Shown piece by piece: positions 6,465 to 63,961 of a stretch of 64,000 nt of DNA. The notes under the pieces are model-generated. The model had not been told where the DNA came from. It worked only from the letters and a program-made list of their open reading frames with translations, and did not search any database. The stretch is from positions 205,475 through 269,474 of the forward strand of contig JAMWCD010000006.1 in assembly GCA_023818965.1 (NCBI GenBank). Reading direction: 5' to 3'. Made by a program: the position numbers and the translations under genes. Position 1 is the stretch's first letter. Every line of letters begins with the position of its first letter. This stretch comes from Candidatus Omnitrophota bacterium. GTDB taxonomy: Bacteria; Ratteibacteria; UBA8468; B48-G9; DTJG01.

Positions 6465-7581
6465 TGTTTTGACAGGTGGCAATATTTCAGGGAAAAGGGC
6501 GGTTGTTGTAGCCTTTAATGAAAAATCCCGAAAGATAAGCGAAGAAAACCTTCTTGAACTGAACTCACTTGCAAAGACACTGGGTGTGAATGTTATAAGT
6601 TCAATTCTTATAAGGCATCCAGAACCAGTATACCCTGCCACCTATATTGGCAAGGGTAAAATACAGGAATTGAAAAATCTTATTCAATCAGAAAAGTGTG
6701 ATTTGATGATATTTGAAAAGGATCTTTCGCCGGTACAGCAAAGAAATCTTGAACATCTTCTTGGTACAGTAGTACTTGACAGGACAGTATTGATACTTTT
6801 GATTTTTGGAAATCATGCCCATACCCTTGAAGGGAAATTGCAGGTTGAACTGGCACAGATGACATATCTTTTGCCACGTCTTGCAGGTTCTTATGGGAAT
6901 TTATCAAGATTGGGTGGTACTATTGGAACAAGGGGACCAGGAGAGCAAAAACTTGAGGTCTATAGAAGACGGGTGAGAGAAAGAATAAGGTTATTGAATC
7001 TCAGAATCAAAGAGATTGAAAAACACAGAAATATTATCAGAGAAACAAGACAGAGGAAAAATTTTCCTGTATGTGCACTTGTTGGTTATACCAATGTCGG
7101 AAAAAGTACTTTACTTAATGCCCTTACACACAAACAGGATGCTGTTGTGGATAATAAGTTGTTTTCCACTCTTGACCCACTGACCCGACTTGTCTATCTT
7201 GGAGAAAAAAGCTTCTGTTTGATGTCTGATACTGTTGGTCTTCTTTCATCCTTACCGCACCACCTTATTGCTGCATTCAGGGCAACACTCGAAGAATTGA
7301 AATATTCGCATCTTTTGATATGTCTTATTGATGTAATAGGTTTCAGCATAGAGAAACAGATGAGTACGATTGAAAACGTTCTTGGAATTATGGAAGTTCA
7401 GGATAAACCAAGAATCACTGTGTTTAATAAGATTGATTTGATTGATGAAGGAGAGTTGAATTTTCTTAAAAAAAGTTTTCCGGATGCAATTTTTATTTCA
7501 GCAAAGACAGGTGAAGGATTTGAACAATTAAAGGGAAGAATCAGGCAGATTGTGGGGGAGTATGCGTATTACAGCACATGA
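6451..7581 (+). CDS. hflX: GTPase HflX
   Basis: 376 aa. HflX-type N-terminal domain followed by a G domain with Walker A (VGYTNVGKSTLLNALT), DTVG and NKID motifs. Confidence 0.85.
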   Translation: MQHPNVLTGGNISGKRAVVVAFNEKSRKISEENLLELNSLAKTLGVNVISSILIRHPEPVYPATYIGKGKIQELKNLIQSEKCDLMIFEKDLSPVQQRNLEHLLGTVVLDRTVLILLIFGNHAHTLEGKLQVELAQMTYLLPRLAGSYGNLSRLGGTIGTRGPGEQKLEVYRRRVRERIRLLNLRIKEIEKHRNIIRETRQRKNFPVCALVGYTNVGKSTLLNALTHKQDAVVDNKLFSTLDPLTRLVYLGEKSFCLMSDTVGLLSSLPHHLIAAFRATLEELKYSHLLICLIDVIGFSIEKQMSTIENVLGIMEVQDKPRITVFNKIDLIDEGELNFLKKSFPDAIFISAKTGEGFEQLKGRIRQIVGEYAYYST

Positions 7582-18016: not shown

Positions 18017-18775
18017 ATGAAAACAAAAAGAGCAGGATTTACGTTGATTGAACTTCTTGTGGTGATTGCCATCATAGCAATACTTGCAGCGATGTTGCTT
18101 CCTGCATTGAGCAAAGCAAGGGAAAAAGCAAGACAGGCAGTATGTGCTGCGAACATGAAACAATTGATGCTGTGCTGGCGACTGTATGTTGATGATTATT
18201 CAGGTTACCTGCCTGTGTGTGACCCTAATCTTGTGTGGGGATATTATCAGAGAACAACATGGGTACACCTAATTATTCCCTATTCAAACACAAAGTATCA
18301 CACATGGTTCAATCCACCTAATAACCTTTATATGTACATTGATAATAAGGGAAGCATTTTTATCTGTCCATCAGTTGCTAAGTACTATACCCCTGGGGTT
18401 AGCAATGTTATGAATGTTTCCTACGGAATGAATATGTATGGTGTTGGTGGTCGCGATACAGTCGGACTTGGGTACGATTCGTCTTCTACCAAATACAGAC
18501 CTGGAATGAAAAAGGAATCGCAGATCAAAAGACCTGATGCCACACTTGTGTTTGTCGATAGTTTTGACAGGGTAAACCTGAGGAACTTTGATGTTGATCC
18601 ATCCAAACTGCAAACGACCTCATCAAAGGTTGATTTGAGGCATAATAATATGGCGAATGTGGCTTTTGCTGATGGACATGTTGAAGCAATGAACTACAGT
18701 ACCCTTTGTGCACCATATCAGACCCCAGCATATCCATCAATCATTACAAGTTATCTCTGGGGCTGGGGATATTAA
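18017..18775 (+). CDS. prepilin-type N-terminal cleavage/methylation domain protein with DUF1559-like C-terminus
   Basis: [31 protein letters not shown]: class III signal peptide with G/F cleavage site and Glu at +5. C-terminal FADGHVE motif typical of DUF1559 proteins. Confidence 0.8.
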
Positions 18776-41157: not shown

Positions 41158-42077
41158 AAAAAATACTGAGTTTTTTAAAAAAGAATCTTGTTTTTGTTTT
41201 CCTTGTGATTGTTCTTGGGCTACTGGGTTTTGGGTTTAATCTTATAAGAAAGACGCAGCAGGAACTTAAGAAGATGGAAGAAGAGATAAAGGCGAAACAT
41301 GATGAAATAAGAAAGTATGAAACTCAGAAAGAACTGGCACCATCACCAGAACTTGTCAATAAATTGCAAAAACAATATACTGCGGTTGCAGAACAGTTTA
41401 ACTCTCTGTTAAACCGTTTTTCCACAACCTATCCAGCAGTACCTGAGTTTAAGGTTTTCCCGAATGTTGAATTTAAGGAATTTCTTTTTGAGACAGGAGA
41501 CCAGTTAAAAAAGAAAGCCAAAAAGAATAATGTAATTATACCCTCATCCTTTGGATTTCAGGAGACAGGTTTTCCATCACCTGACCAGATACCATTATTT
41601 TCGTTACAGATTACTGTAATCAAGCATATTCTTGACCTGCTTATTGATTCAGGTATCAGTGTTGTTAATTCGGTTGTCCCTGGTATTCCATCAACGGTTG
41701 CTTTTTATAAAATCCTTCCTCTTGATGTATCAATTACAGGAACAAGCATTGAAATTATCAGGTTTTTAAGATACCTTAACAATCCTTCATCATTCTTCAC
41801 ACTTGAAAGTTTTGCTGTGACAAAGAAGGACACAGGTTTATTTCAGGGGAATTTTAAAATCAATGCTGTGATGATTGAAAAAGCAGCCGCAGTTGTTACT
41901 TCTGAAATACCAAAAGGGACACAGCCTTCTGCACAGGGAGCACCAGGAAGTCCTTCCGGGCAGCCACAGGGAGTACCAGGAAGTCCTCCTGGAGTTCCCC
42001 AGCAGCCACAGAAAGTACCAGGACACCCTGCTGGTGTTCCCGGGCAGCCACAAGCACCACCTAATCCTGTTAAATAG
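41154..42077 (+). CDS. PilO-like inner-membrane pilus assembly protein
   Basis: 307 aa. N-terminal TM helix, coiled coil, periplasmic alpha/beta domain, and a Pro/Gln-rich tail. Lies in the PilO position, translationally coupled to pilMN. Confidence 0.55.
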   Translation: MKKILSFLKKNLVFVFLVIVLGLLGFGFNLIRKTQQELKKMEEEIKAKHDEIRKYETQKELAPSPELVNKLQKQYTAVAEQFNSLLNRFSTTYPAVPEFKVFPNVEFKEFLFETGDQLKKKAKKNNVIIPSSFGFQETGFPSPDQIPLFSLQITVIKHILDLLIDSGISVVNSVVPGIPSTVAFYKILPLDVSITGTSIEIIRFLRYLNNPSSFFTLESFAVTKKDTGLFQGNFKINAVMIEKAAAVVTSEIPKGTQPSAQGAPGSPSGQPQGVPGSPPGVPQQPQKVPGHPAGVPGQPQAPPNPVK

Positions 42078-42085
42078 GGATACTT

Positions 42086-44695
42086 ATGCAAAAAGATTTT
42101 ATTTCAAAGTGGAAGAATGCGGATAGAAAAGGTAGAAAGAAAATTCTGTGTGATTTTATTGCAGCAAAAAGAAGACAAAAAACAAATGTTTCAGATACAA
42201 GAAAAAAAATCTCATTACAGAATAAATCTGCGAGAAAACCTGTTTTGTCCTGTCTACCGAAGATTCCTGAAATTAAAAGACATGCCCTTGCATTTTGCTT
42301 TTCCTCATCCTCAGATTCACCGACTGGAGCAAGAGATGATAACATTCAGGATTCAGGCGGTGAAGACCAGCCACCAAAGTCGCCTGAAGAACCTTCAAGA
42401 AAATCAAATATGAATGTCGATAAAGGTCCTGAAATTAAAAAAGACAAAGCCCGCCAGGATAAAAAGCAATTACTGATTAGATTTATTGAAGAAAAGAAAA
42501 GGGAAAAAGAAATTGCACAGAAGCAGCGACATGCAGAGAAAGAGGCGAGGAAGAAGTTAGCAGAGGAAGCCAGGAGGCAGGCGCAGGAGAAACTGGCGAT
42601 AGATGCAGAGGCGAGGCGGCAGGCGAAGCAATTGCGTCGGCAGGAGTTATTGAAGGCAAAGATAGAGAGAGAGATAAAGGCGAAAGCAGAGAGGCAGGCA
42701 AAGATAGAGGCGAAGCAGAAGGAGAAGGAGGCGATAGAGAAGAGCCGTCAGGTTGAGCTAGAGGAGAGGAAGAGATTAGTTGAAGAGGCATTGAAATTAA
42801 GGAAGCAGAAGAAGGAATTGCTTGTAGCATACCTTAATGGAATAAGAAGCAAGAGGGAGATAGAGCAGAAGCAACGACTTGCAGAGAAAGAGGCGAGGAA
42901 GAAGTTAGCAGAGGAAGCCAGGAGGCAGGCGCAGGAGAAACTGGCGATAGATGCAGAGGCGAGGCGGCAGGCGAAGCAATTGCGTCGGCAGGAGTTATTG
43001 AAGGCAAAGATAGAGAGAGAGATAAAGGCGAAAGCAGAGAGGCAGGCAAAGATAGAGGCGAAGCAGAAGGAGAAGGAGGCGATAGAGAAGAGCCGTCAGG
43101 TTGAGCTAGAGGAGAGGAAGAGATTAGTTGAAGAGGCATTGAAATTAAGGAAGCAGAAGAAGGAATTGCTTGTAGCATACCTTAATGGAATAAGAAGCAA
43201 GAGGGAGATAGAGCAGAAGCAACGACTTGCAGAGAAAGAGGCGAGGAAGAAGTTAGCAGAGGAAGCCAGGAGGCAGGCGCAGGAGAAACTGGCGATAGAT
43301 GCAGAGGCGAGGCGGCAGGCGAAGCAATTGCGTCGGCAGGAGTTATTGAAGGCAAAGATAGAGAGAGAGATAAAGGCGAAGGCAGAGAGGCAGGCAAAGA
43401 TAGAGGCGAAGAAAATTTCTCCGAAAGTAAAGCCACCAGATATCAGACCAGAAAAAAGAAAAAAATTACTTTCCTTTATCAATGATCTGAAAGCAAAATA
43501 TCAGCAGGAAGTCATAAGACAGAAGATTGCAAAAGATGCCTTGAGGAAGCAAAAAGAAATTGCGGTTCTTGCATTAAAACAGGAAAGGCAGGCAAAAGCA
43601 ATTCAGGCAGCCGAATTCAGGGCACGGAAAAAACAAATTGAACTCCAGAAAAAAGAACTTCTCAAGGCAGAATTACTTCTTGCTGCAAAAAGAAAAGCAG
43701 AAGCAAAGGCAGTTGAGAAATCACGCAAAGAATATGAAAAACAGATTAAGGATTTTTCATCAAAAATTACTGGTGCTGTTTCAAATGTAAGCAAGTTGAC
43801 TGGGGCTGCTCTTACATCAGCAATTTCTTCTGTAACTCCATTTGTTAAGAAAGCCCAAAGTATTAAGGTCCCTGCTGCTGAAAAATTTGCAAAACCTGAG
43901 ATTGTTCCTGCAGAAGTTCCTGCAAAAGCAATACCTGCAAAAGCAGAAAAGGCAAAAAAGTACAGAGAACCAGTAAAGATTGGACCACTGTTGAGAAAGA
44001 ATGCATTCAGAATTCTTTTCTTGCTTTTACTTTTGATGTGGCTTGGCGAAATTTTGTTTTATTCACTGAGATGGCGACCGCCAAGGGAAAAGTTTGAGGA
44101 AATGTTTGGTTCTGAAGAAGCAAAATCCAGTAAAACAGGTTCTACTGAAATAACAGAGGCAGAAACAAAAATAGCAGAATATAAAATTCCTTCCATTAAC
44201 ATTGAAGGGAAAAGAGACCCATTTTCAAGTGGATTGTTGACAATGGAATTGATGAAAAAACCGAAACCAACAGAAATTGTAAAGGCATATCAACCCGAGA
44301 TTATTACAATTTCAAGAGCACCATCAATTGTTTCCTCCAGTGTTCAAAAACCTATAAGAGAAAAGGCAGAAAAGATTACACCGATTCTGAAACCAGAGAA
44401 ACCCGAACCAGCCACTGCAACATTGTCTGAGGCAACAACAACAAAGATACTTCCACCTGCTCCTGTTTCAAAACCTGAAGTTTCGCCATTGATTGTTCCA
44501 CAGATTGAGTGTAATCTTATCTACAGGGGTAGTTTGATTATGGAAGGGATTGAATATATTTTCCTTGAAGGCAAACAGAGAACATACAGGGTAACAGTTG
44601 GTGATGTTGTAGAAGGTTTCAGGATTCTGAAAAAAGAAAAGGGAGTGCTCACATTATCAAAGGAAGGAGTTATAATTGAAATTCCTGCTGAATAA
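42086..44695 (+). CDS. 869-aa bitopic protein: long E/K/R-rich helical N-terminal region containing tandem repeats, one TM helix, a Pro-rich linker, and a C-terminal PilP/GspC-HR-like beta domain
   Basis: No signal peptide. About 640 aa of KEKE-type charged helix. TM at FRILFLLLLLMWLGEILFYSL. The C-terminus (ECNLIYRGSLIMEGIEYIFLEGKQRTYRVTVGDVVEGFRILKKEKGVLTLSKEG) resembles the PilP / GspC homology-region fold. Sits in the pilP position between pilO and pilQ. Confidence 0.5.
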   Translation: MQKDFISKWKNADRKGRKKILCDFIAAKRRQKTNVSDTRKKISLQNKSARKPVLSCLPKIPEIKRHALAFCFSSSSDSPTGARDDNIQDSGGEDQPPKSPEEPSRKSNMNVDKGPEIKKDKARQDKKQLLIRFIEEKKREKEIAQKQRHAEKEARKKLAEEARRQAQEKLAIDAEARRQAKQLRRQELLKAKIEREIKAKAERQAKIEAKQKEKEAIEKSRQVELEERKRLVEEALKLRKQKKELLVAYLNGIRSKREIEQKQRLAEKEARKKLAEEARRQAQEKLAIDAEARRQAKQLRRQELLKAKIEREIKAKAERQAKIEAKQKEKEAIEKSRQVELEERKRLVEEALKLRKQKKELLVAYLNGIRSKREIEQKQRLAEKEARKKLAEEARRQAQEKLAIDAEARRQAKQLRRQELLKAKIEREIKAKAERQAKIEAKKISPKVKPPDIRPEKRKKLLSFINDLKAKYQQEVIRQKIAKDALRKQKEIAVLALKQERQAKAIQAAEFRARKKQIELQKKELLKAELLLAAKRKAEAKAVEKSRKEYEKQIKDFSSKITGAVSNVSKLTGAALTSAISSVTPFVKKAQSIKVPAAEKFAKPEIVPAEVPAKAIPAKAEKAKKYREPVKIGPLLRKNAFRILFLLLLLMWLGEILFYSLRWRPPREKFEEMFGSEEAKSSKTGSTEITEAETKIAEYKIPSINIEGKRDPFSSGLLTMELMKKPKPTEIVKAYQPEIITISRAPSIVSSSVQKPIREKAEKITPILKPEKPEPATATLSEATTTKILPPAPVSKPEVSPLIVPQIECNLIYRGSLIMEGIEYIFLEGKQRTYRVTVGDVVEGFRILKKEKGVLTLSKEGVIIEIPAE
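42500..43408 (+). repeat. 2.7 copies of a 348-bp (116-codon) in-frame tandem repeat; copies 2 and 3 are essentially identical at the nucleotide level
   Basis: Repeat unit (Q)KQRLAEKEARKKLAEEARRQAQEKLAIDAEARRQAKQLRRQELLKAKIEREIKAKAERQAKIEAKQKEKEAIEKSRQVELEERKRLVEEALKLRKQKKELLVAYLNGIRSKREIE. The mirrored antisense ORFs at 42483, 42834 and 43182 confirm the 348-bp period. The coding strand is purine-rich and GC-rich relative to its surroundings. Confidence 0.9.
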
Positions 44696-51818: not shown

Positions 51819-51893
51819 AAAGTTTATTTAAACCATTTTTTAATTTCCCATTTTACAAAGGTGGATAAAGGAGGATTTTAACAGGGAGAACAT

Positions 51894-53785: not shown

Positions 53786-53940
53786 CTTTTCCACCTTCCC
53801 TTCAGGAAGGAGGGAATGCAAGGGGAGGTTGAAATCTCCCAAAAATCCCCCTCTGTCCCCCTTTGAAAAAGGGGGAAGAGAAGGGGGATTTTAGAAAAGG
53901 GGGCAATAGAGGGAAAAATTGAATGGAAGGGGAATTTACA
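53786..53940. repeat. cluster A of G/C-rich hairpin repeats (C5T3-loop-A3G5 family) in the gspJ-gspK intergenic spacer
   Basis: ccttcaggaagg palindrome, tccccctttgaaaaaggggga hairpin, and repeated gggggatttt / aagggggaa motifs. Strongly G/C-biased compared with the flanking AT-rich DNA. Confidence 0.6.
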
Positions 53941-56148: not shown

Positions 56149-56632
56149 TTACAAAAATTTGTTGCTTGGGGGCTTTCTTATTCTACTGTTGCTTTATCAA
56201 TTTGTTTGTGCGCCAGGCATAAGAAAGATCAAAGGCCTCAACAAAACATATATTCAGAAGCAAAAAGAACTTGAAACATTGAACAATTTAATATCCCAGT
56301 ATAAGGCAAGGACAACTCAATCAACCACCTTGTTTGCTCCTTCCAATTTCAACCTTTATCTTTTTGTTTCTAAATCCATTGATATGATTGATTCAAAGGC
56401 ACGTATTTCAAGAATAACACCCGTGACAGAAAGTATTCTCTTAAATGCCATTGAACAACACATTACAATTGGAATTGAAGAAATTGAACTTGAGAAACTT
56501 TTAATGTTGCTTGATGAAATTGAGAAAAGGGACTTTTTGAGATATGGTTATCTTCAGATTTCTCGCAATGCCCAGAAACCCTTTGTTGTTAAAGCAGAGA
56601 TGGAAATTATTTCTTATAAGCCAGTCCAATGA
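56135..56632 (+). CDS. gspM: GspM-like inner-membrane protein
   Basis: 165 aa. Single N-terminal TM helix (LLLGGFLILLLLYQF) and a small periplasmic domain. Positional inference. Confidence 0.5.
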   Translation: MKKINYKNLLLGGFLILLLLYQFVCAPGIRKIKGLNKTYIQKQKELETLNNLISQYKARTTQSTTLFAPSNFNLYLFVSKSIDMIDSKARISRITPVTESILLNAIEQHITIGIEEIELEKLLMLLDEIEKRDFLRYGYLQISRNAQKPFVVKAEMEIISYKPVQ

Positions 56633-59016
56633 ACAAGATTTTTCTGATTGATGCCAATAACATTATCTACAGGTCTTTCTTTGCGATAAAACCATTTACC
56701 ACTTCAACAGGTCAACCGACAAACGCAATATTTGGATTTGTTTCCACACTTTTGAAAATTTTCAAACAATATAACCCGCAATACATGGCAATTGCTTTTG
56801 ATACACCTGTTCCAACATTCAGGCATCAAATTCTTGAACAATACAAAATTTCAAGGAAACCAATGCCTGACGAATTATCATCACAGATTCCTGTCATAAA
56901 AGAAATTATTAATGCATTTGGAATTACATCAATTGAAAAAGAAAAATTTGAAGCAGATGATTTGCTTGCCTGCCTTGCATTAAAATTTTCTGAACAAAAT
57001 TATGATGTTGTTATTGTCTCAGGAGACAAAGATATTCTTCAACTTTTATCAGACAAAATTTCGGTCATCAATCCTGCAACATGGGAGATGATTGATTCAA
57101 AAAAATTTTTTGAAAAATATTGTTTCAGTCCAGAAAAGATTGTTGATTTTCTTGCTCTGTGTGGGGACGCATCTGATTGTATTCCAGGGGTACCAGGGAT
57201 AGGAGAAAAGACCGCCTTGCAACTGGTACAACAATTTGGAACAATTGAATCAATTTATGAAAACATTGATAAAATAAAAGGCAAAAGGAAACAAATACTT
57301 CTTGATGGTAAACAATCAGCATTTTTAAGTAAACGCCTTGTTGAACTTTCAAAACAGGTGTCGTGCGAGATTGGTATTGATGAACTGAAAGTAAGAAAAA
57401 TTGACATTGAAAAAATCAGACAGATTTTTCAAAAACTTGAATTTAGAAAATTTGAGTCGCAAATATCAGAAATTTTTGGCAAGCACAATTTACATGAAAT
57501 TTCAAAGGATTTGTTTGCTATTGGAGATGAGATCTTTAATTTCAATGAAATTATGAAAGACCCGCATTTGTTTAAAGAAAAATTGGTTGATGAGAAGAAA
57601 ATAAAAATTTCATGGAACTTAAAAGAAAAGATCAAGCGTCTGGCATCAAAAAATATTGATATGTGTCCACCATATTTTGATTTTGATGTCGCATCATTTC
57701 TTTTAAATAATGTCATTTATGATTCTGACATTTTAAATCTTTATCAGAAATATCGGGAAAATCTCAAATCGCAGGAGATGTCTTTTCTTTCTGAAAATAT
57801 TGAGATGCCACTTATTGAAGTGCTTGCCTTTATGGAAATCAATGGCATTCTTGTTGACAAGCATTACCTTGAAAAACTGAAAAATGAATATGAAAATGAA
57901 ATGAATCAATTACAAGAAAAAATTTATTGTTTTGCAGGAGAAGTTTTTAATATTAATTCTCCATCGCAGGTTGCAAGGATTTTGTTTGAACGATTAGGGC
58001 TTCCTCCAAAGAAAAAAACAAAAACTGGTTATTCAACAGATACCAATGTTCTTGAACAATTACGTAATCAGCATCAGATTGTTGACCTGATTCTTCAACA
58101 CAGAGAACTTGCAAAACTGTGCAGCACTTATATTGATGGATTTTCTTCTTACATCAATCCAGTTGATAATAGAATTCATCCTGAATTTCAACAGACAATT
58201 GCCTCGAGTGGTCGTATTGTATGCCACAATCCAAACTTACAGGCAATTCCTGTAAAAACAGAAAAGGGTGGAAGAATAAGAAAAATTTTTGTTGCACCTG
58301 AAAATTCAATGTTATATTCATTTGATTACAATCAAATTGAATTAAGAATTCTTGCTCATTTTTCAAAAGACAAAAATCTTGTAGAAGCATTTAAAAATCA
58401 CAGGGACATACACCTTGAAACAGCAAGACAACTTTTTTCATTTGATTCGCAATCACTTTTTGGAAACCAGGAAATTGATATTTACCGTCGCATAGCAAAA
58501 ACAATAAACTTTGGTATTATCTACGGGATGAATAGTTATGGTCTTGCTCAACGACTTACATGCACTGTTGACCAGGCGCAGGCATTTATTGAGTCATATT
58601 TCGCAAAGTTTCAGGGAGTTAGAAGTTATATTCAACAGGCAATTTCAGAAGCAGAAAAACTTGGTTATGCAAAAACACTTTTTGGAAGAAAAAGATATTT
58701 ACCGGAAATTCATTCTGAAAACAGAAATCAGGTGGCATTTGCATCAAGGGTTGCAATCAATATGCCCATTCAAGGCACTGCAGCAGAATTGATAAAACTT
58801 GCAATGATTCAGATTCATAATTTCATTAAAAAAAATAAGATGAAAACAAAAATGATTCTTCAGATTCACGATGAACTTGTTTTCGAAATCCCTGACTGCG
58901 AAGTAGATATTGTTAAGGAAATCAAGAGAATCATGGAAAATGTGTACCATCTTATTGTGCCATTAAAGGTGAATGTTCAAAAAGGACAAAATTACCTTGA
59001 TATGCTTGAAATTTAA
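56629..59016 (+). CDS. polA: DNA polymerase I (5'-3' exonuclease plus polymerase; about 795 aa, Taq-like size)
   Basis: N-terminal FEN-like domain (FLIDANNIIYRSFFA). Pol A motifs A/B/C (DYNQIELRILAH, RRIAKTINFGIIYGM, ILQIHDELVFE). ATG overlaps the gspM stop (ATGA). Confidence 0.9.
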   Translation: MNKIFLIDANNIIYRSFFAIKPFTTSTGQPTNAIFGFVSTLLKIFKQYNPQYMAIAFDTPVPTFRHQILEQYKISRKPMPDELSSQIPVIKEIINAFGITSIEKEKFEADDLLACLALKFSEQNYDVVIVSGDKDILQLLSDKISVINPATWEMIDSKKFFEKYCFSPEKIVDFLALCGDASDCIPGVPGIGEKTALQLVQQFGTIESIYENIDKIKGKRKQILLDGKQSAFLSKRLVELSKQVSCEIGIDELKVRKIDIEKIRQIFQKLEFRKFESQISEIFGKHNLHEISKDLFAIGDEIFNFNEIMKDPHLFKEKLVDEKKIKISWNLKEKIKRLASKNIDMCPPYFDFDVASFLLNNVIYDSDILNLYQKYRENLKSQEMSFLSENIEMPLIEVLAFMEINGILVDKHYLEKLKNEYENEMNQLQEKIYCFAGEVFNINSPSQVARILFERLGLPPKKKTKTGYSTDTNVLEQLRNQHQIVDLILQHRELAKLCSTYIDGFSSYINPVDNRIHPEFQQTIASSGRIVCHNPNLQAIPVKTEKGGRIRKIFVAPENSMLYSFDYNQIELRILAHFSKDKNLVEAFKNHRDIHLETARQLFSFDSQSLFGNQEIDIYRRIAKTINFGIIYGMNSYGLAQRLTCTVDQAQAFIESYFAKFQGVRSYIQQAISEAEKLGYAKTLFGRKRYLPEIHSENRNQVAFASRVAINMPIQGTAAELIKLAMIQIHNFIKKNKMKTKMILQIHDELVFEIPDCEVDIVKEIKRIMENVYHLIVPLKVNVQKGQNYLDMLEI

Positions 59017-59086: not shown

Positions 59087-59143
59087 ACTCTTGACAATGG
59101 AGAAAAAAACCATTAACATTAATAATGGAAGGAGGTGATAAAG

Positions 59144-59803
59144 ATGAAGAGAAAAGGGTTCACGCTCATAGAACTTCTTGTGGTAATCGCGATCATAGCG
59201 ATTCTTGCAGCAATGTTGCTTCCTGTTCTTTCGAGGGCAAGGGAAAATGCAAGACGTGGTGTTTGTATGTCAAACTTAAAGCAGATTGGTCTTGCATTAA
59301 AGATGTATGCCCAGGACTGGGATGAGTTTTATCCTTATGTGAGTGGTGGAACTTCTGGTGAAACAGGTCATGCATTCTGTCTGCTTTATGGTAGATTACG
59401 CGATACTACAACAAAACTTACTGTGAATTACCTGAAAAATACTGGAGTTCTTGTTTGTCCGAGTTCAAATGACACTGTTTACACTGTTGACCCTGAAGAC
59501 CTGTCTCAACCTTTCAGTCCATTGTTCACACGTGGAGCAGGAAACTGTTCTTATGCTTATGCCTGGGGTCTTGATGAAAAGACCTTGCCTGAATCAGCTG
59601 TTGTTTGTGACAAGGTGTATGGAGAAGGAGACCATGCTCTCTGGTCATGGACGGTTCAGGTGACAGATGCAAATGACAACCATGGTAAAGATGGAGTTAA
59701 TGTTCTTTATGTTGGAGGCAACGTTAAGTGGGCAGCAGCAAATACCAGCGGTTATCTGTCTGCTGATGATTTTCCGAACTACATGAGGATTATGAATCCA
59801 TGA
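59144..59803 (+). CDS. prepilin-type (class III signal peptide) DUF1559-like protein, tandem paralog 1
   Basis: [58 protein letters not shown]... followed by a variable C-terminal body. Confidence 0.8.
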
Positions 59804-59856
59804 GAATTTGGTTGACTATGAATACAAAAAAATTTTGTAAAAGGAGGTGAAAAAGA

Positions 59857-60573
59857 ATGAAAAGAAAAGGATTTACCCTAATAGAACTACTTGTGGTAAT
59901 CGCGATTATAGCGATTCTCGCAGCGATGTTGCTTCCTGTTCTTGCAAAGGCAAGGGAAAAAGCCCGTCGTGGTGTGTGTATGTCAAACCTGAAACAAATT
60001 GGACTTGCCCTCAGGATGTATTCACAGGATTTTGATGAATCATTTCCTTACAGAGGTGGTGCTACAGGTAGTAATGAGACAGCATACGCCTATTGTCTAT
60101 TGTTTGGAAGGGTTTATGGTGGGGCTGTGGGAACAAGGGATGGTAATAAGGTTTGTCCAAACTACTTAAAGAACACAGGAATGCTTGTTTGTCCGAGTTC
60201 AAAAGACATCAAGTATATGGTTGATCCTGAAGATACATCAGTAGTATTCCAGCCGACATTTAACTTTGTTGCACCAACAGACAGAACCCATTGTTCCTAT
60301 GCTTATGGTTGCGGGCTTGATGAACAGACAAATATTGAATCAGTTCTTGCAGCAGACAAGGTAACAGGAGAAGGTTCAAACACTTTGTGGGGAACCACAG
60401 ATGGAACAGTGGTTGTCCGCATTGGTAATGACAGCCATGGTGCGGATGGAATTAATGTTCTTTATGTCAGTGGTAGTGTAAACTGGGTCGCTGCTGACAG
60501 GAATGGAAATCTGCCAGTGGACAAACTTGGTGGTGGTCAGGTTATTAATGCTACAAGCATCAGGAATCCATAA
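59857..60573 (+). CDS. prepilin-type DUF1559-like protein, tandem paralog 2
   Basis: First approximately 60 aa nearly identical to paralog 1; the C-terminal body diverges. Has its own AAAGGAGGTG ribosome-binding site. Confidence 0.8.
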
Positions 60574-60627
60574 TGGATTTATGGAGAAAAAATGAAAAAA
60601 AAATAAAATGAAAGGAGGTGAAAAAAG

Positions 60628-61314
60628 ATGAAGAGAAAAGGGTTCACGCTCATAGAACTTCTGGTGGTAATCGCGATCATAGCGATTCTCGCAGCGATGT
60701 TGCTTCCTGCACTCGCAAGAGCAAGAGAACAGGCAAGAAGGAGTGTTTGTATTGCAAACTTAAAGCAGTTAGGTCTTGCTCTGAAGATGTACGCTCAGGA
60801 CTACAAGGAATACTACCCTGCATCAACGTATTTTGCACTTGGAGGATCAGCACTGGATGAGCCATCATCTGTTACTCCACTTTCACTGCTTTATCCACAG
60901 TATGTGTCAACAGGAAAAACATTTATCTGTCCATCTGACTTAGGTCACCACACTGCAGGTGCTCCTGTTTATAACAGCGCACCTCTGGTTGATACAGTTG
61001 GTGGAACAGATAATGCAGGTTGTTCCTATGCTTATGCACAGTACTGCAATGAGTCAGTTGATGTTGACACAGTGGTAATCGTGGATAAATCCGTTGGTAC
61101 GCTTGGTGCATGGGGTTCACAGTGGTCATCCACGCTTGTGGTTCTCGGTACTTCAGGTGGAAGAGACAACAACGTTAACCACAAGACAGATGGAATTAAT
61201 GCCTGCATGGTTGATGGCCACGTAAGATGGGTCCCGAGCGGAAAGATTGCTGATCTTATTCCGAACAGGAACAACTCTGGTACTGGTGTAATAGCGAAGA
61301 TTATTAACCCGTAA
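60628..61314 (+). CDS. prepilin-type DUF1559-like protein, tandem paralog 3
   Basis: Same leader and N-terminal helix. The body is the most divergent of the three and ends with VDGHVRWV (DUF1559-type DGHV motif). Has its own ribosome-binding site. Confidence 0.8.
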
Positions 61315-61331
61315 AAATTACCACGTCAAAG

Positions 61332-61367
61332 GAAAGCCCCTCTGAAAAGAGGGGCTTTTCCTTTTTT
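61332..61367 (+). terminator. rho-independent terminator
   Basis: Perfect 10-bp stem aagcccctct / agaggggctt with a GAAA loop, followed by ttcctttttt. Confidence 0.85.
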
Positions 61368-61632
61368 ATTGTTTCCCCTTTTTCAAATCCTCCCTCCATT
61401 CCCCCTTTCATAAAACCTCCCCCTCCAATTTCCCCTTTCGTAAGGGGGGACTAAGGGGGATTAAAATCTCCCCCAGCCCCCTCTTTGGGAAAGAGGGGGA
61501 ACTTGGGCACGAAAAATCCACCCCCACCCTCCTTTATAAAAGGAGGGAGAAAATTCCCCCTTTCCAAATTCTCTCCATCTTTCCCCCTCATAAAGGGGGA
61601 CTAAGGGGGATTTGAGATGCAAGAGGGATTTT
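61368..61632. repeat. cluster B of G/C-rich hairpin repeats (C5T3-loop-A3G5 family)
   Basis: Units tcccctttcgtaagggggg, ccccctctttgggaaagaggggg, ccctcctttataaaaggaggga, ccccctcataaaggggga, and two copies of aagggggactaagggggatt. Confidence 0.6.
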
Positions 61633-62898
61633 TTATTTTCTTTCTTTTTCTATTTTCTTCTGATAACCACTTTCAATATATGCTTCAATTGGGTCAACAG
61701 GTACATTCATTTCAATTCTTGCCTTTGCTACTATTGGTCTTGCATCAGCATTGATGATTGCATCATTGAATAATCTATTCGCGAGAATAATTTCATCCGC
61801 ATCCTGGTATTGCTCAAGTTTTTTTGAGTTCACAAGCATCGCCTTTGCGAGGGATAATTGAAGTGAATCAACAGAATGCAGGAGTGCCTGAATCCTGTTT
61901 TCTCTTCCACCGCACTGGTCAATCATATATGCCCAGTTTTTCTTTTCATCTTTATTTACGACAACATTTCCCTTGACAAGTTCATAGAAAATTCTTGCCA
62001 TTTGCTGGTTTGGTTCAACTGCATGGTCATCATCAGCAGCATATCTTGTGTTAAAATGGAATCCACCAGCCATATTTTCAGAAATCAGTGTCATCACAAT
62101 CTGCTCAATGTTTGTTCCATGATGGTGATGTCCTAAATCGACAAGTACTCCAGCATTTGGTCCGAGTTGTTTTGCTAAAGCAAAAGATGTTCCCCAATCA
62201 GGAATTGTTGTGCTGTATGTCCCTGGTTCAAAAACCTTGTATTCAATAAGAATCAAAATATCCTTCGGCATATTTTCGTATGATTTTACAAGGCAGTTCT
62301 TAAGTCGCTGGTAAGTTTTTTTCAGGTCAACCTGACCTGGATACATTGAGCCATCAGGAAACCAGAGTGTCACAATGCCATTACAGAGTTCCTTTGCAAT
62401 TTTTCCTGCCAGTATTGTTTGTTCAATATATCTTTGTTGAGTGTTTTTATCAGGTGAGGTGAAACTTCCCATATGAGAACCAGCAAGAAAATATGTTGGA
62501 TTCACTGCACCAAGTTCAATTCCCCTGTCTTTTGCTTCTCTTGCCACACGTTGTGCAATATTATAATTGGCAACCATTCCATCAACTGAAAAATCCCATA
62601 GCATATGTGTGGCAAATCTTTTTGTAACACCAGTAAGTTTAAAGATAAAAGCCGCATCATCAAGTTTCTCTTCAATGTTTCTTGCAGCACCAGGATAAAT
62701 ATATCCACCAAATCTTCCTCCGCCAAAAGTTCCAAGAGCCCATCCAGGAATTTCGACCTGGAATTTTTTTACAGCATCAATAGCATTTCTTACTGCTTTT
62801 TCTCCAAATTCTTCGCTTAACATTTCAATACCGTTTTCAATCCATTTCATGCTTTTTCCCATTTTATCCTCCATTTTTATTTGTTTTTCTTCTAACAT
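61633..62898 (-). CDS. TIM-barrel sugar isomerase (probably L-rhamnose-isomerase-like, xylose-isomerase fold)
   Basis: 421 aa. Metal-binding-like clusters (DLGHHHHGTN, AADDDH). Size and pattern are consistent with rhamnose / xylose isomerase-like enzymes. The specific family is unverified. Confidence 0.45.
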   Translation of the reverse strand: MLEEKQIKMEDKMGKSMKWIENGIEMLSEEFGEKAVRNAIDAVKKFQVEIPGWALGTFGGGRFGGYIYPGAARNIEEKLDDAAFIFKLTGVTKRFATHMLWDFSVDGMVANYNIAQRVAREAKDRGIELGAVNPTYFLAGSHMGSFTSPDKNTQQRYIEQTILAGKIAKELCNGIVTLWFPDGSMYPGQVDLKKTYQRLKNCLVKSYENMPKDILILIEYKVFEPGTYSTTIPDWGTSFALAKQLGPNAGVLVDLGHHHHGTNIEQIVMTLISENMAGGFHFNTRYAADDDHAVEPNQQMARIFYELVKGNVVVNKDEKKNWAYMIDQCGGRENRIQALLHSVDSLQLSLAKAMLVNSKKLEQYQDADEIILANRLFNDAIINADARPIVAKARIEMNVPVDPIEAYIESGYQKKIEKERK

Positions 62899-62934
62899 AA
62901 ATTTTACTATTTTTTTGAAAAAATTTCATCTTCA

Positions 62935-63185
62935 GGAATTAACCTCCCCTTAGTCCCCTCCTTTCAGGAAGGGAATTAAAGGGGAGGTGACCCCTTTTCA
63001 AAAATCCCCCTCCACCTTCCCCCTTTCGTAAAGGGGGACACAGGGGGATTTTAATCCACCCCAACCCTCCTTTATAAAAGGAGGGAGTGGAAGGGTTGAA
63101 AAGGGGGACTAAGGGGGATTTAAAAGGAGGGAGTGAAAGGGTGGTAAAGGGGATACAGGGGTATAACCGAACTTTGAAAGAGGAG
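62935..63185. repeat. cluster C of G/C-rich hairpin repeats
   Basis: cctttcaggaaggg, tccccctttcgtaaaggggga, ccctcctttataaaaggaggga, and aagggggactaagggggattt are shared with cluster B, partly in inverted orientation (cctccccttagtcccc). Confidence 0.6.
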
Positions 63186-63190
63186 AAAAA

Positions 63191-63961
63191 TTAGACACTA
63201 ATTTTTCTCCCAGTGATTAGATAGGCAGTATGCCCAACCATTACATCATTTGGCCTCAGCCGTTCAGGATTGGTTTTATATTTTCTCAGCAGTATTTCAC
63301 AAACCCCAACATCAATTACAGGAAGTGTTTCTGAAATTTCTAACACTGTTGAGACCTGATTTGTTGTTGGGACAACGATTCCAAAACTTGCACCACAGGA
63401 CAGGCAACTTATAACTTTATCAAGGTAGTCCTGTGGATTTTTGATGTCAATAATCGCAGAATCAAAATTGTTTTCTTCAATGCCATCTGCGATATTTTTT
63501 GTGTGAAATACAACCCTGTCTGAGAGATTTAATTGTTCAATAAGATGTTTTGCCTTTTTTGAAAAATTTTCTCTTTCTTCATAGGTATAGATTTTTCCAG
63601 TTTTTCCGACAAAATACGCAAGAGCAAGTGTCATTGCACCAGAGCCAGTTCCAATTTCAAGAATTTTCATTCCTTCTTTTATCCCAAGTTTCAAAATCAA
63701 ATATCCTGCGTCTTTCGGATAAATAATCTGGGTACTTCGTTTAACATAATGAAGAATCAATTCTTCAATAGAAGGGATAAAAAAATAGAGTTTGTGGTTT
63801 GTACTTGTCATTACAAAGCCACCAGGAGATTTACCAGTGATACTATCCAGATTAATTATTCCATTGTGTGTGCTGAAATTTCTTGATTCAATTTTCACAA
63901 GCCATTTTTTGCCGTCTTCAGACAAAAGACAAACAATATCACCTTTTTCTAATGCTTTCAT
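63191..63961 (-). CDS. trmI: tRNA (adenine58-N1)-methyltransferase TrmI (Gcd14 family)
   Basis: 256 aa. N-terminal beta domain followed by a SAM-MTase fold with QIIYPKDAGYLI and EIGTGSGAMTLALA motifs. Confidence 0.8.
   Translation of the reverse strand: MKALEKGDIVCLLSEDGKKWLVKIESRNFSTHNGIINLDSITGKSPGGFVMTSTNHKLYFFIPSIEELILHYVKRSTQIIYPKDAGYLILKLGIKEGMKILEIGTGSGAMTLALAYFVGKTGKIYTYEERENFSKKAKHLIEQLNLSDRVVFHTKNIADGIEENNFDSAIIDIKNPQDYLDKVISCLSCGASFGIVVPTTNQVSTVLEISETLPVIDVGVCEILLRKYKTNPERLRPNDVMVGHTAYLITGRKISV

Follow-up and report, generated by a model that had tools for sequence, protein, structure and literature searches.

BoxC repeats, later named PIT elements and then the intrastrand triplex motif TMECO, are the closest described relatives of the repeats reported here (Bergler 1992; Hoyne & Maher 2000; Holder 2015, PMC4666352). 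BoxC was first reported in the 1992 paper on the sequence of envM, the former name of fabI. Strain MG1655 harbors 23 copies of TMECO, all intergenic and in both orientations, including five inverted pairs of two sequence types (Holder 2015, PMC4666352). The single strand forms a triplex in vitro according to circular dichroism and nuclear magnetic resonance, as established for E. coli TMECO alone, and TMECO loci display raised strain-to-strain variability linked to instability (Holder 2015, PMC4666352). Mobility functions were 'never found' near TMECO (Holder 2015, PMC4666352). Here, we analyze three intergenic spacers, designated clusters A, B, and C, in a 64,000-nucleotide stretch of DNA (the window) from a Candidatus Omnitrophota bacterium (contig JAMWCD010000006.1, positions 205,475 to 269,474). 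Comparative sequence data lead us to propose, with a probability of roughly 0.55, that these spacers are arrays of BoxC/PIT-type repeats representing gene-less copies of a nuclease-associated selfish module, in which a gene encoding a DUF559 protein is bracketed by a left-end (LE) and a right-end (RE) repeat unit.

Other described systems are relevant to this comparison. Repetitive extragenic palindromes (REP) and bacterial interspersed mosaic elements (BIME) are associated with REP-associated tyrosine transposases (RAYT), the genes of which are typically present in a single copy. Small dispersed repeats include miniature inverted-repeat transposable elements (MITEs), Correia elements, and the small dispersed repeats of cyanobacteria. 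Finally, free-standing homing endonucleases of the Vsr-like EDxHD family reportedly include the Vsr-like homing endonucleases of 'fractured genes'.

Results

Three spacers are packed with hairpins that carry a mirror-repeat third arm

The GC content of the window is 36%. An initial inspection of the letters alone (the sequence-only reading) had noticed GC-rich hairpins packed in three spacers, and this description was borne out by motif positions, base runs, and shuffled controls. The 18-mer GGGGGACTAAGGGGGATT was found as exact copies at positions 61445, 61595, and 63103, and with two mismatches at 53844 (minus strand) and 63033. The number of matches expected from shuffles was 0.02, and five matches were reached in none of 100 shuffles. 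A second motif, CCCTCCTTTATAAAAGGAGGG, was present at 61527 and 63065 (exact matches; none expected). Twenty-three of the 31 runs of at least five G or C bases in the window fell in the three spacers, which account for about 1% of the sequence.

The repeat unit, about 33 nt in length, consists of five parts: a C-rich arm, a loop of 3-5 nt, a complementary G-rich arm, a linker of 3-6 nt, and a second G-rich arm mirroring the first. Examples are TCCCCCTTT-NNN-AAAGGGGGA-CTA-AGGGGGATT and TCCCCCTTT-CGT-AAAGGGGGA-CAC-AGGGGGATT, and TCCCCCTTTCGTAAAGGGGGACTAAGGGGGATT is a unit sequence including the third arm. This third arm tracks the hairpin arm in mirror register, AAAGAGGGG being accompanied by GGGGAGATT and AAAGGAGGG by GGGTGGATT, with T or A opposite A. 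In AGGGGGATT, T replaces the A of AAAGGGGGA, and nine C-G*G / T-A*A / T-A*T triads would result. Thus, the units are hairpins, as initially described, but not only hairpins. A scan for the pattern C-arm, loop, complementary G-arm, linker, and mirror G-arm, with 8-nt arms, returned 31 register hits corresponding to approximately 13 units, all located in 53796-53890, 61465-61612, and 62942-63100; no hit was obtained in 20 block-shuffles. Together with one decayed copy, these units were confined, within the 64 kb, to the three spacers and to a site upstream from gspG.

Units were found in three forms: one-sided units, two-sided palindromes of 45-50 nt in which the outer stem is formed by the two third arms, and head-to-head LE-RE dimers. 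Folding of the two-sided units as DNA gave energies of -16 to -20 kcal/mol (z = -4.1 to -5.5). In the dimers (61430-61499 and 63017-63087), a forward unit ending in GGGGGATT is separated by 2 nt from a reverse unit starting with AATC(C/T/A)CCCC. Truncated and nested copies are also present in the clusters, and unit ends in the window are AATCCCCC / GGGGGATT.

Cluster A occupies the gspJ-gspK spacer inside a type II secretion system (T2SS) operon and is therefore intra-operonic, as first thought. Cluster C lies between two tandem minus-strand genes. The sequence-only reading had placed clusters B and C downstream of gene ends; cluster C is indeed downstream of a TrmI-like methyltransferase gene, but it is also upstream of a RhaA-like sugar isomerase gene, within the 5' leader of the latter.

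The units resemble BoxC/PIT/TMECO in architecture but not in arm sequence

We place the units in the BoxC/PIT/intrastrand-triplex-motif class because they carry a mirror-repeat third arm. Judged by their sequence, the window units are members of this class with arms unlike those of TMECO. As in BoxC/PIT/TMECO, a C-rich arm of about 9 nt and its G-rich complement enclose a 3-6 nt loop, and a linker of about 3 nt leads to a mirror purine arm in the class II register (C-G*G / T-A*A / T-A*T). Also shared are a multi-copy, strictly intergenic distribution in both orientations, frequent head-to-head inverted pairs of two sequence types, and arms less variable than loops. Hypervariable or rearranged loci between close strains, another property of the class, were observed for clusters B and C, whereas cluster A was stable.

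The two groups differ in sequence. The TMECO pattern CCCTCNCCC-N3-6-GGGNGAGGG-N3-GGGNGAGGG does not describe the window units, the arms of which are CCCCCTTT, CCCTCCTTT, or CCCCTCTTT (CCCCCTTT/AAAGGGGG in the window family versus CCCTCNCCC/GGGNGAGGG in TMECO). In addition, the host is an AT-rich Omnitrophota-like bacterium, the core of the window units is spread over many phyla, and many units are two-sided palindromes. Published work on the class mentions no associated mobility gene, whereas a DUF559 gene is a recurrent partner here.

The same core is present in many phyla

The exact 18-mer was searched in a collection of species-representative genomes and was detected at more than 116 loci, as compared to approximately 17 expected for a random 18-mer by our own estimate. 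Copies thus exist well beyond the window, as a repeat family predicts. Among the matches listed, the hosts were Dehalococcoidia and other Chloroflexota, anammox Planctomycetota, Omnitrophota, Nitrospirota, Riflebacteria, Leptospiraceae, Trueperaceae, groups of the candidate phyla radiation, Bacteroidota, and Zixibacteria; the isolates listed were few (Marivirga, Cyclobacterium, and Pseudoxanthomonas), and the GC content of the listed genomes ranged from 27% to 64%. Since the same core is found in many phyla, in metagenome-assembled genomes (MAGs) and a few isolates, the family is not specific to one lineage, contrary to one of the initial proposals. The flanks of these loci were mutually unrelated.

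The 8-bp C-arm hairpin, which was outside the search pattern, was present in 98 of the 114 instances with enough flanking sequence. In only 18 of the 114 was the 5' arm able to form Watson-Crick pairs with the third arm, indicating that the third arm is conserved without such a partner. Six viral contigs contained the 18-mer and none of them encoded DUF559, so phages are no evident vector.

A DUF559 nuclease gene is the recurrent partner of the units

Open reading frames (ORFs) of the 116 motif loci were clustered to find recurrent neighbors. Apart from generic ATPases, the sole recurrent family comprised DUF559 proteins of 112-124 aa (PF04480, E = 1e-33), which are Vsr-like nucleases of the PD-(D/E)XK type. 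A gene of this family was present in 8 of the 116 loci, from at least five phyla, and adjoined the motif in six. On the left side, a forward unit ending in ...GGGGGATTAG is located 0-60 nt before the DUF559 start codon. On the right side, a reverse unit (TAATCCCCC-N4-TCCCCCTTT-loop-AAAGGGGGA) directly adjoins the stop codon or includes it.

Eighty independent metagenomic DUF559 loci were then fetched, and the 63 loci with both flanks were counted, upstream units being scored within 150 nt of the gene. An upstream unit with its third arm towards the gene was found in 32 of the 63 loci (other orientation, 9), and a downstream unit in the inverse orientation in 30 (other orientation, 8). A unit of any kind was present beside DUF559 in 46 of the 63 loci versus 3 of 207 control segments, a share (73%) that applies to the sampled subfamily because the query was built from motif-adjacent DUF559 genes. 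Within a locus, LE and the reverse complement of RE gave a median similarity score of 27, as compared to 16 between loci (p = 1.6e-8). The arm sequence varied by DUF559 sub-lineage (CCCCCC, CCCCTCTTT, CCTTCCCCC, and CTCCCTTTGGGAGAG). For pairs of DUF559 proteins at least 60% identical, LE and RE had median scores of 34 and 29, whereas DNA located 140-320 nt away was at background (17 and 17). These results indicate that the conserved module comprises LE, the gene, and RE, embedded in unrelated contexts.

Units flank DUF559 on both sides in finished records of Picosynechococcus PCC 7002, Pseudanabaena, in which the TAG stop codon of DUF559 doubles as the RE linker, Deinococcus proteolyticus, in which the polarity is flipped, and Neisseria gonorrhoeae. 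Synechocystis sp. B12 has a unit only upstream of the gene. One orthologous site was found in filled and empty states: downstream of a carA-like gene of related Chloroflexota, three of our comparison loci (L126, L097, and L136) contain DUF559, whereas L032 contains units without the gene. L032 retains the same RE-type unit and the following LE-type unit, and its difference from the filled sites stops exactly at the inner edge of RE. DUF559 proteins beside identical units are 69-72% identical across Chloroflexota, Planctomycetota, and Zixibacteria, which points to horizontal transfer.

The residues of catalytic type D51, E62, D64, and H68 are invariant in these proteins. The DUF559 profile matched PDB entry 3hrl (E = 6e-33) and entry 3r3p, 'Mobile intron protein' (E = 1.7e-5), which we take to be the homing endonuclease I-Bth0305I. 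The likeness to free-standing homing endonucleases of the Vsr-like EDxHD family extends from this related fold to the arrangement of the locus, since the DUF559-bearing form, unlike the window copies, places a small nuclease ORF between the halves of a presumptive palindromic target, with gene-less LE-RE dimers elsewhere and presence or absence of the gene at an orthologous locus. The difference is that the putative DUF559 target is a multi-copy dispersed repeat rather than a unique conserved gene and that no intron or intein is involved. PADLOC returned only weak nuclease-domain matches, to DpdF and to a methyl-directed restriction endonuclease, and no assignment to a defense system.

Several loci displayed additional arrangements around the gene. 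In L049 (around 6900-7090), four tandem RE-type units (AATCCCCCCAGCCCCCCTTTGCGAAAGGGGGG, period of 43 nt) directly follow the DUF559 stop codon. In L067 (1011-1845, a Bacteroidia MAG) and L214 (N. gonorrhoeae), DUF559 is located between direct repeats of about 140 nt, each with a unit, besides the inverted units, an arrangement suggestive of duplication or recombination in the vicinity of the gene. In L097, L117, and L126, stop-to-stop ORFs run through the units, so that DUF559 acquires peptide tails such as IPLSPPFSKGG...RGIL. Spurious or overlong protein predictions in annotated MAGs are a likely consequence of repeats of this kind.

REP/BIME repeats and MITEs

Short GC-rich intergenic palindromes occurring as single copies, inverted pairs, and clusters of alternating orientation are also the hallmark of REP/BIME elements (REPINs), and a classical REP family mobilized by an IS200-like Y1 transposase was considered. 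The dispersed, intergenic, BIME-like clustering of palindromes in both orientations noted from the sequence alone was confirmed, as was the lack of a match to the REP consensus. A conserved GTAG or CGTC tetranucleotide at one end of the palindrome is the defining REP feature (PMC3733652), and neither was conserved at the ends of the window units. A search for a RAYT partner had been advocated by the sequence-only reading; tblastn and phmmer with E. coli RayT against approximately 210 loci and the window returned a single match, weak and non-adjacent (L089), and DUF559 was the recurrent neighbor instead. Mobilization by a RAYT is for these reasons highly improbable. In L089, a Candidatus Brocadia MAG, the IS200/RayT-like ORF (570-971, E = 2.5e-5 to E. 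coli RayT) is located 1.4 kb from a DUF559 gene bracketed by the exact 18-mer unit, the sole such case in the approximately 210 loci.

The parallel with REP/BIME-RAYT systems is nonetheless close in other respects, since a small enzyme gene is located between inverted repeat copies and since gene and repeat sequence co-vary between lineages. The differences are the absence of a GTAG/CGTC tag, the additional mirror arm, and the nature of the partner, a PD-(D/E)XK Vsr-like nuclease (PF04480) rather than an HUH Y1 transposase.

With MITEs and very small dispersed repeats, the units share an inverted-repeat structure with LE and RE ends, an intergenic location, non-autonomous, nested, and truncated copies, and the existence of a related gene-bearing form. 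They differ from MITEs in that they are just 33-50 nt long, that no target-site duplication was identified, the boundaries of units abutting other units so that none could be defined, and that a nuclease, not a DDE transposase, is the product of the putative autonomous form.

A CRISPR-like array was ruled out by the irregular spacing of the units. G-quadruplex formation was treated as a by-product, each single unit containing two G runs and four or more being present only in the right part of cluster C.

Clusters B and C differ between close strains

Spacer C is 292 nt long in the window and in L001, 182 nt in L002, and about 130-160 nt in L206; across these alleles, identity between the isomerases encoded downstream is 99% or higher. 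L002 carries a single complete palindromic unit of a different kind, and only the outer degenerate units are left in L206. In L210, a syntenic relative at 81% identity, the corresponding spacer measures 83 nt and is AT-rich and without units. Cluster B gains or loses an RE unit (RE1) and continues into different downstream DNA in L222-L224. Cluster A was unchanged across samples. This pattern of turnover in the window species matches the behaviors reported for TMECO loci.

Comparison of cluster B (61368-61632) with L207, L210, and L222-L224 identified a synteny breakpoint, the isomerase gene being followed by mraZ-rsmH-ftsL in the relatives. In other strains, unrelated DNA follows the DUF1559 gene and the repeats.

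Contigs of three other assemblies break inside cluster B and many genome matches are at contig ends, raising the question of whether the clusters are assembly or sequencing artefacts resulting from chimeric joins or collapsed low-complexity reads. The probability of this explanation is negligible. Identical units with their unique linkers recur in independent samples and with different assemblers, indicating that the clusters are not an assembly artefact, and homologous elements are also found in isolate genomes of finished quality and in MAGs assembled to chromosome level or into megabase contigs. L001 overlaps the join of the window at cluster B up to position 61465, unique linkers included, which supports this join for the strain under study.

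The units are unlikely to be RNA elements

Cluster A is inside the T2SS operon and cluster C in the isomerase 5' leader, so both are probably transcribed. In combination with the stability of the hairpins, this would be compatible with an action at the RNA level, the units serving as mRNA-stabilizing or processing hairpins, partial terminators, or components of one multi-hairpin structured RNA. The latter possibility, along with a protein-binding array, had been entertained at the outset. Both are unlikely because units face both ways within one spacer, vary between near-identical strains, and match no Rfam family. More specifically, whole units differ between strains with identical flanking proteins and are missing from the 81%-identical relative; Rfam searches, at the gathering threshold for the whole window and under permissive settings for 61300-63250, yielded nothing beyond a tRNA-Met and miRNA-like hairpin noise below threshold; and more than 80% of the copies offer the conserved third arm no partner for RNA pairing. 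PIT elements are also cited as devoid of terminator or promoter activity in E. coli (Holder 2015, PMC4666352). An RNA-level role is accordingly quite improbable.

Intrinsic termination was examined as a separate candidate and rejected. The sole strong-stem terminator site in the spacers (61331-61370) is not a unit, and the units lack T tracts. The other terminator-like sites have weak 5-7 bp stems and are located at the linker following the 61515-61549 unit and within the 61331-61360 stem.

On our reading, the repeats are not an RNA gene, an operator array, or terminators. In this genome, the T2SS operon transcript and the isomerase leader gain stable hairpins from them, with no indication of a regulatory role. 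They behave as non-coding, selfish, and unstable elements acting at the DNA level, which are inserted, lost, and recombined in spacers and mark rearrangement points.

The ycjD locus of E. coli and evidence bearing on mobility

A DUF559 gene, ycjD, is located next to a TMECO in E. coli K-12: its stop codon lies inside a degenerate unit, and TMECO no. 9 is found 168 nt downstream, between ycjD and fabI. A duplicated fragment of the 3' end of ycjD is present between ycjD and TMECO no. 9 (L199, 5041-5828). Of 5,426 complete E. coli genomes, about 38% lack the ycjD region. The place of ycjD upstream of fabI is taken by TetR/RND genes in O157:H7, and no unit is present at the junction; this locus is therefore uninformative on the mechanism.

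Several observations weigh against the proposal that the units derive from a mobile LE-DUF559-RE module. There is no DUF559 gene within the 64-kb window. In K-12, ycjD has no upstream unit and the downstream copies are in the forward rather than the RE orientation. The 'empty' ycjD locus of O157:H7 results from a complex replacement and not from a clean excision. E. coli genomes lacking ycjD show 2-5 matches, unmapped within the query, to a query containing TMECO no. 9; if these matches are TMECO copies, the ycjD gene is unnecessary for their maintenance. About 27% of the metagenomic DUF559 loci lack a unit, about 20% display flipped polarity, and the sampling query came, as stated above, from motif-adjacent genes. 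No target-site duplication or precise insertion footprint was established, as units abut one another. With respect to TMECO itself, in vivo footprinting gave no triplex signal, and Holder et al. cite no promoter or terminator effect (PMC4666352).

These observations leave room for an explanation in which the repeats are host-maintained structural DNA elements that modulate replication, recombination, or supercoiling and spread by ordinary recombination only. DUF559 would then be a host nuclease for repair or processing that resolves or mends these structures, in line with the role of Vsr-type enzymes as nickases in repair, and it would use the units around its gene as its own regulatory sensor and not as transposon ends. 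The persistence of matches to the TMECO no. 9 query in ycjD-less genomes fits this explanation, as does the argument that triplex-motif instability may be adaptive, no mobility genes being found nearby (Holder 2015, PMC4666352). We nevertheless regard it as unlikely. LE, the gene, and RE are conserved in otherwise unrelated DNA, the DUF559 proteins beside identical units are closely similar across three phyla, and an orthologous site occurs both with and without the gene; together, these features argue for a moving module and not for a housekeeping gene.

Coordinates of the units and other features of the window

The units and remnants are listed in Table 1. The window also contains the T2SS operon (gspD-E-F-G...J, then K-L-M beyond cluster A), polA, three tandem prepilin/DUF1559 genes, and the genes for the RhaA-like sugar isomerase and the TrmI-like methyltransferase. 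The nearest named homologues of the isomerase are 84% identical and originate from Candidatus Omnitrophica MAGs.

Table 1. Repeat units, remnants, and one terminator in the window (window numbering).
Feature	Sequence	Coordinates	Strand	Remarks
Decayed LE-type unit	ATTTCCCATTT-TAC-AAAGGTGGA-TAA-AGGAGGATT	51843..51877	+	16 nt upstream of gspG start codon; member of repeat family D3, 70% identity; stem degraded
Cluster A, imperfect unit	TTCCCTTC-AGGAA-GGAGGGAA-TGCA-AGGGGAGG(TT)	53796..53830	+	gspJ-gspK spacer; scan hit with 1 mismatch per arm
Cluster A, two-sided 47-nt palindrome	AATCCCCC-TCTG-TCCCCCTTT-GAA-AAAGGGGGA-AGAGAA-GGGGGATT	53844..53890	both	Perfect hits on each strand; fold -19.9 kcal/mol, z = -5.5; same sequence in L219 and L220
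Cluster A, degenerate G-run remnants	AAAAGGGGGCAATAGAGGG...GGAAGGGGAATT	53895..53936	+	No intact hairpin
Intrinsic terminator of DUF1559 gene		61331..61370	+	Outside the repeat family; 13-bp stem followed by T run; terminator scan
Cluster B, truncated C-rich half-units	AATCCTCCC-TCCA-TTCCCCCTTT-CAT-AAA and ACCTCCCCC-TCCA-AT...	61374..61429	+	Without G arms; look like nested or recombined copies; variants in L222-L224
Cluster B, LE-type unit	TTCCCCTTT-CGT-AAGGGGGG-ACTAA-GGGGGATT	61430..61462	+	Exact 18-mer; folds as hairpin, third arm free or paired to neighboring unit
Cluster B, RE-type unit	AATCTCCCCC-AGC-CCCCTCTTT-GGG-AAAGAGGGGG (+ strand sequence)	61465..61499	-	Perfect triplex-motif hits; LE-AA-RE head-to-head dimer with 61430-61462; same type as units after DUF559 in L119-L127; missing in strains L223 and L224
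Cluster B, RE-type unit	AATCCACCCC-CA-CCCTCCTTT-ATA-AAAGGAGGG(AG)	61515..61549	-	Scan hit; RE type shared with the unit following DUF559 in L132
Cluster B, LE-type unit	CTTTCCCCCTC-ATA-AAGGGGGA-CTA-AGGGGGATT	61579..61612	+	Exact 18-mer and scan hit; also in L001
Cluster C, two-sided unit	AACCTCCCC-TTAG-TCCCCTCC-TTTCA-GGAAGGGA-ATTAA-AGGGGAGGT	62941..62989	both	Hits on each strand; fold -15.8 kcal/mol, z = -4.1; kept in L002 and L206, the short alleles
Cluster C, two-sided unit	ATCCCCCT-CCACCT-TCCCCCTTT-CGT-AAAGGGGGA-CACA-GGGGGATTT	63004..63051	both	Fold -16.3 kcal/mol, z = -4.4; missing in L002 and L206
Cluster C, RE-type unit	AATCCACCCC-AA-CCCTCCTTT-ATA-AAAGGAGGG(AG)	63053..63087	-	LE-TT-RE dimer with + reading of 63004-63051; missing in L002 and L206
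Cluster C, truncated LE-type unit	AAAGGGGGA-CTA-AGGGGGATT	63100..63120	+	G arm, linker, and third arm, without C arm; exact 18-mer
Cluster C, degenerate units	ATACCCC-TGTA-TCCCCTTT-ACCACCC-TTTCA-CTCCCTCCTTT (minus strand)	63121..63170	-	Without G arms; conserved in all alleles; left anchor of the variable segment

The start of polA (56629-59016) is located 4 nt before the gspM stop codon, and DNA polymerase I is apparently co-transcribed with the type II secretion genes. The three paralogous prepilin-type N-methyl/DUF1559 genes follow polA in tandem (59135-61314), with 76-77% DNA identity at their 5' ends, and a fourth relative is found 41 kb upstream of the trio (18017-18775). An ORF of 869 aa (42086-44695) contains three tandem 348-nt repeats (42456-43451; 100, 90, and 79% identity) in a region of raised GC content (0.44) and strong AT skew (0.40), and a short periodic repeat of 33-42 nt is present just upstream (41932-42034). 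The ORF looks like a repetitive protein, probably surface-exposed or secreted.

Discussion

The LE and RE of the window dimers are of the same sequence types as those bordering DUF559 at other loci, and the gene is missing between them, which is why we read these dimers as gene-less copies; they could be non-autonomous copies or empty sites. According to our proposal, the units would correspond to a compact LE - DUF559 - RE module lacking its endonuclease gene, with the Vsr-like nuclease encoded elsewhere in this genome or present at an earlier time. DUF559 may recognize the structure or the sequence of the repeats and nick or cut them. Repair or recombination would then copy, convert, or delete units, either by homing-like gene conversion or by an action in trans similar to that of RAYTs. 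In this manner, the nuclease would drive the copying, loss, and spread of the units. The mirror arm may matter through formation of a triplex in vivo or through recognition by a protein.

More tentatively, BoxC/triplex-motif repeats in general may be non-autonomous copies of a widespread, horizontally transferred selfish element of the LE - DUF559 - RE type. By recognizing the hairpin together with its mirror arm, the nuclease would cause units to be spread, converted, and lost, as a nuclease-based counterpart of the REP/RAYT system. If so, the taxa concerned would include Omnitrophota, Chloroflexota, anammox Planctomycetota, cyanobacteria, Deinococcus, Neisseria, and E. coli, in the latter case through ycjD.

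The repeat class is already known, and the link to DUF559 was not found in the literature searched. In this literature, no text connected BoxC or triplex motifs with DUF559, although an earlier description elsewhere remains possible; the unit sequence itself was absent, texts on DUF559 did not mention repeats, and no match was obtained for ycjD and REP. Likewise, the literature searched after 2010 on intrastrand triplexes and TMECO contained nothing tying these repeats to a nuclease.

Since this class was first seen beside E. coli envM/fabI in 1992, its biophysics has been studied, and its origin, spread, and function have been left unexplained. The comparative data provide a concrete and cheaply testable hypothesis, namely that the small, uncharacterized DUF559 nucleases, among them E. 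coli YcjD and the protein of solved structure 3hrl, are the partners of the repeats. If this is true, a function would be assigned to a very common domain of unknown function, and an explanation would be at hand for some of the genome instability seen between strains and for some of the contig breaks in assembled metagenomes. Attention would also be drawn to the units as a cause of false ORFs, with peptides such as PPF.KGG..GI, and of erroneous joins in MAGs. Finally, a second symbiosis between an enzyme and a repeat, mechanistically different from RAYT/REP, would stand beside the latter.

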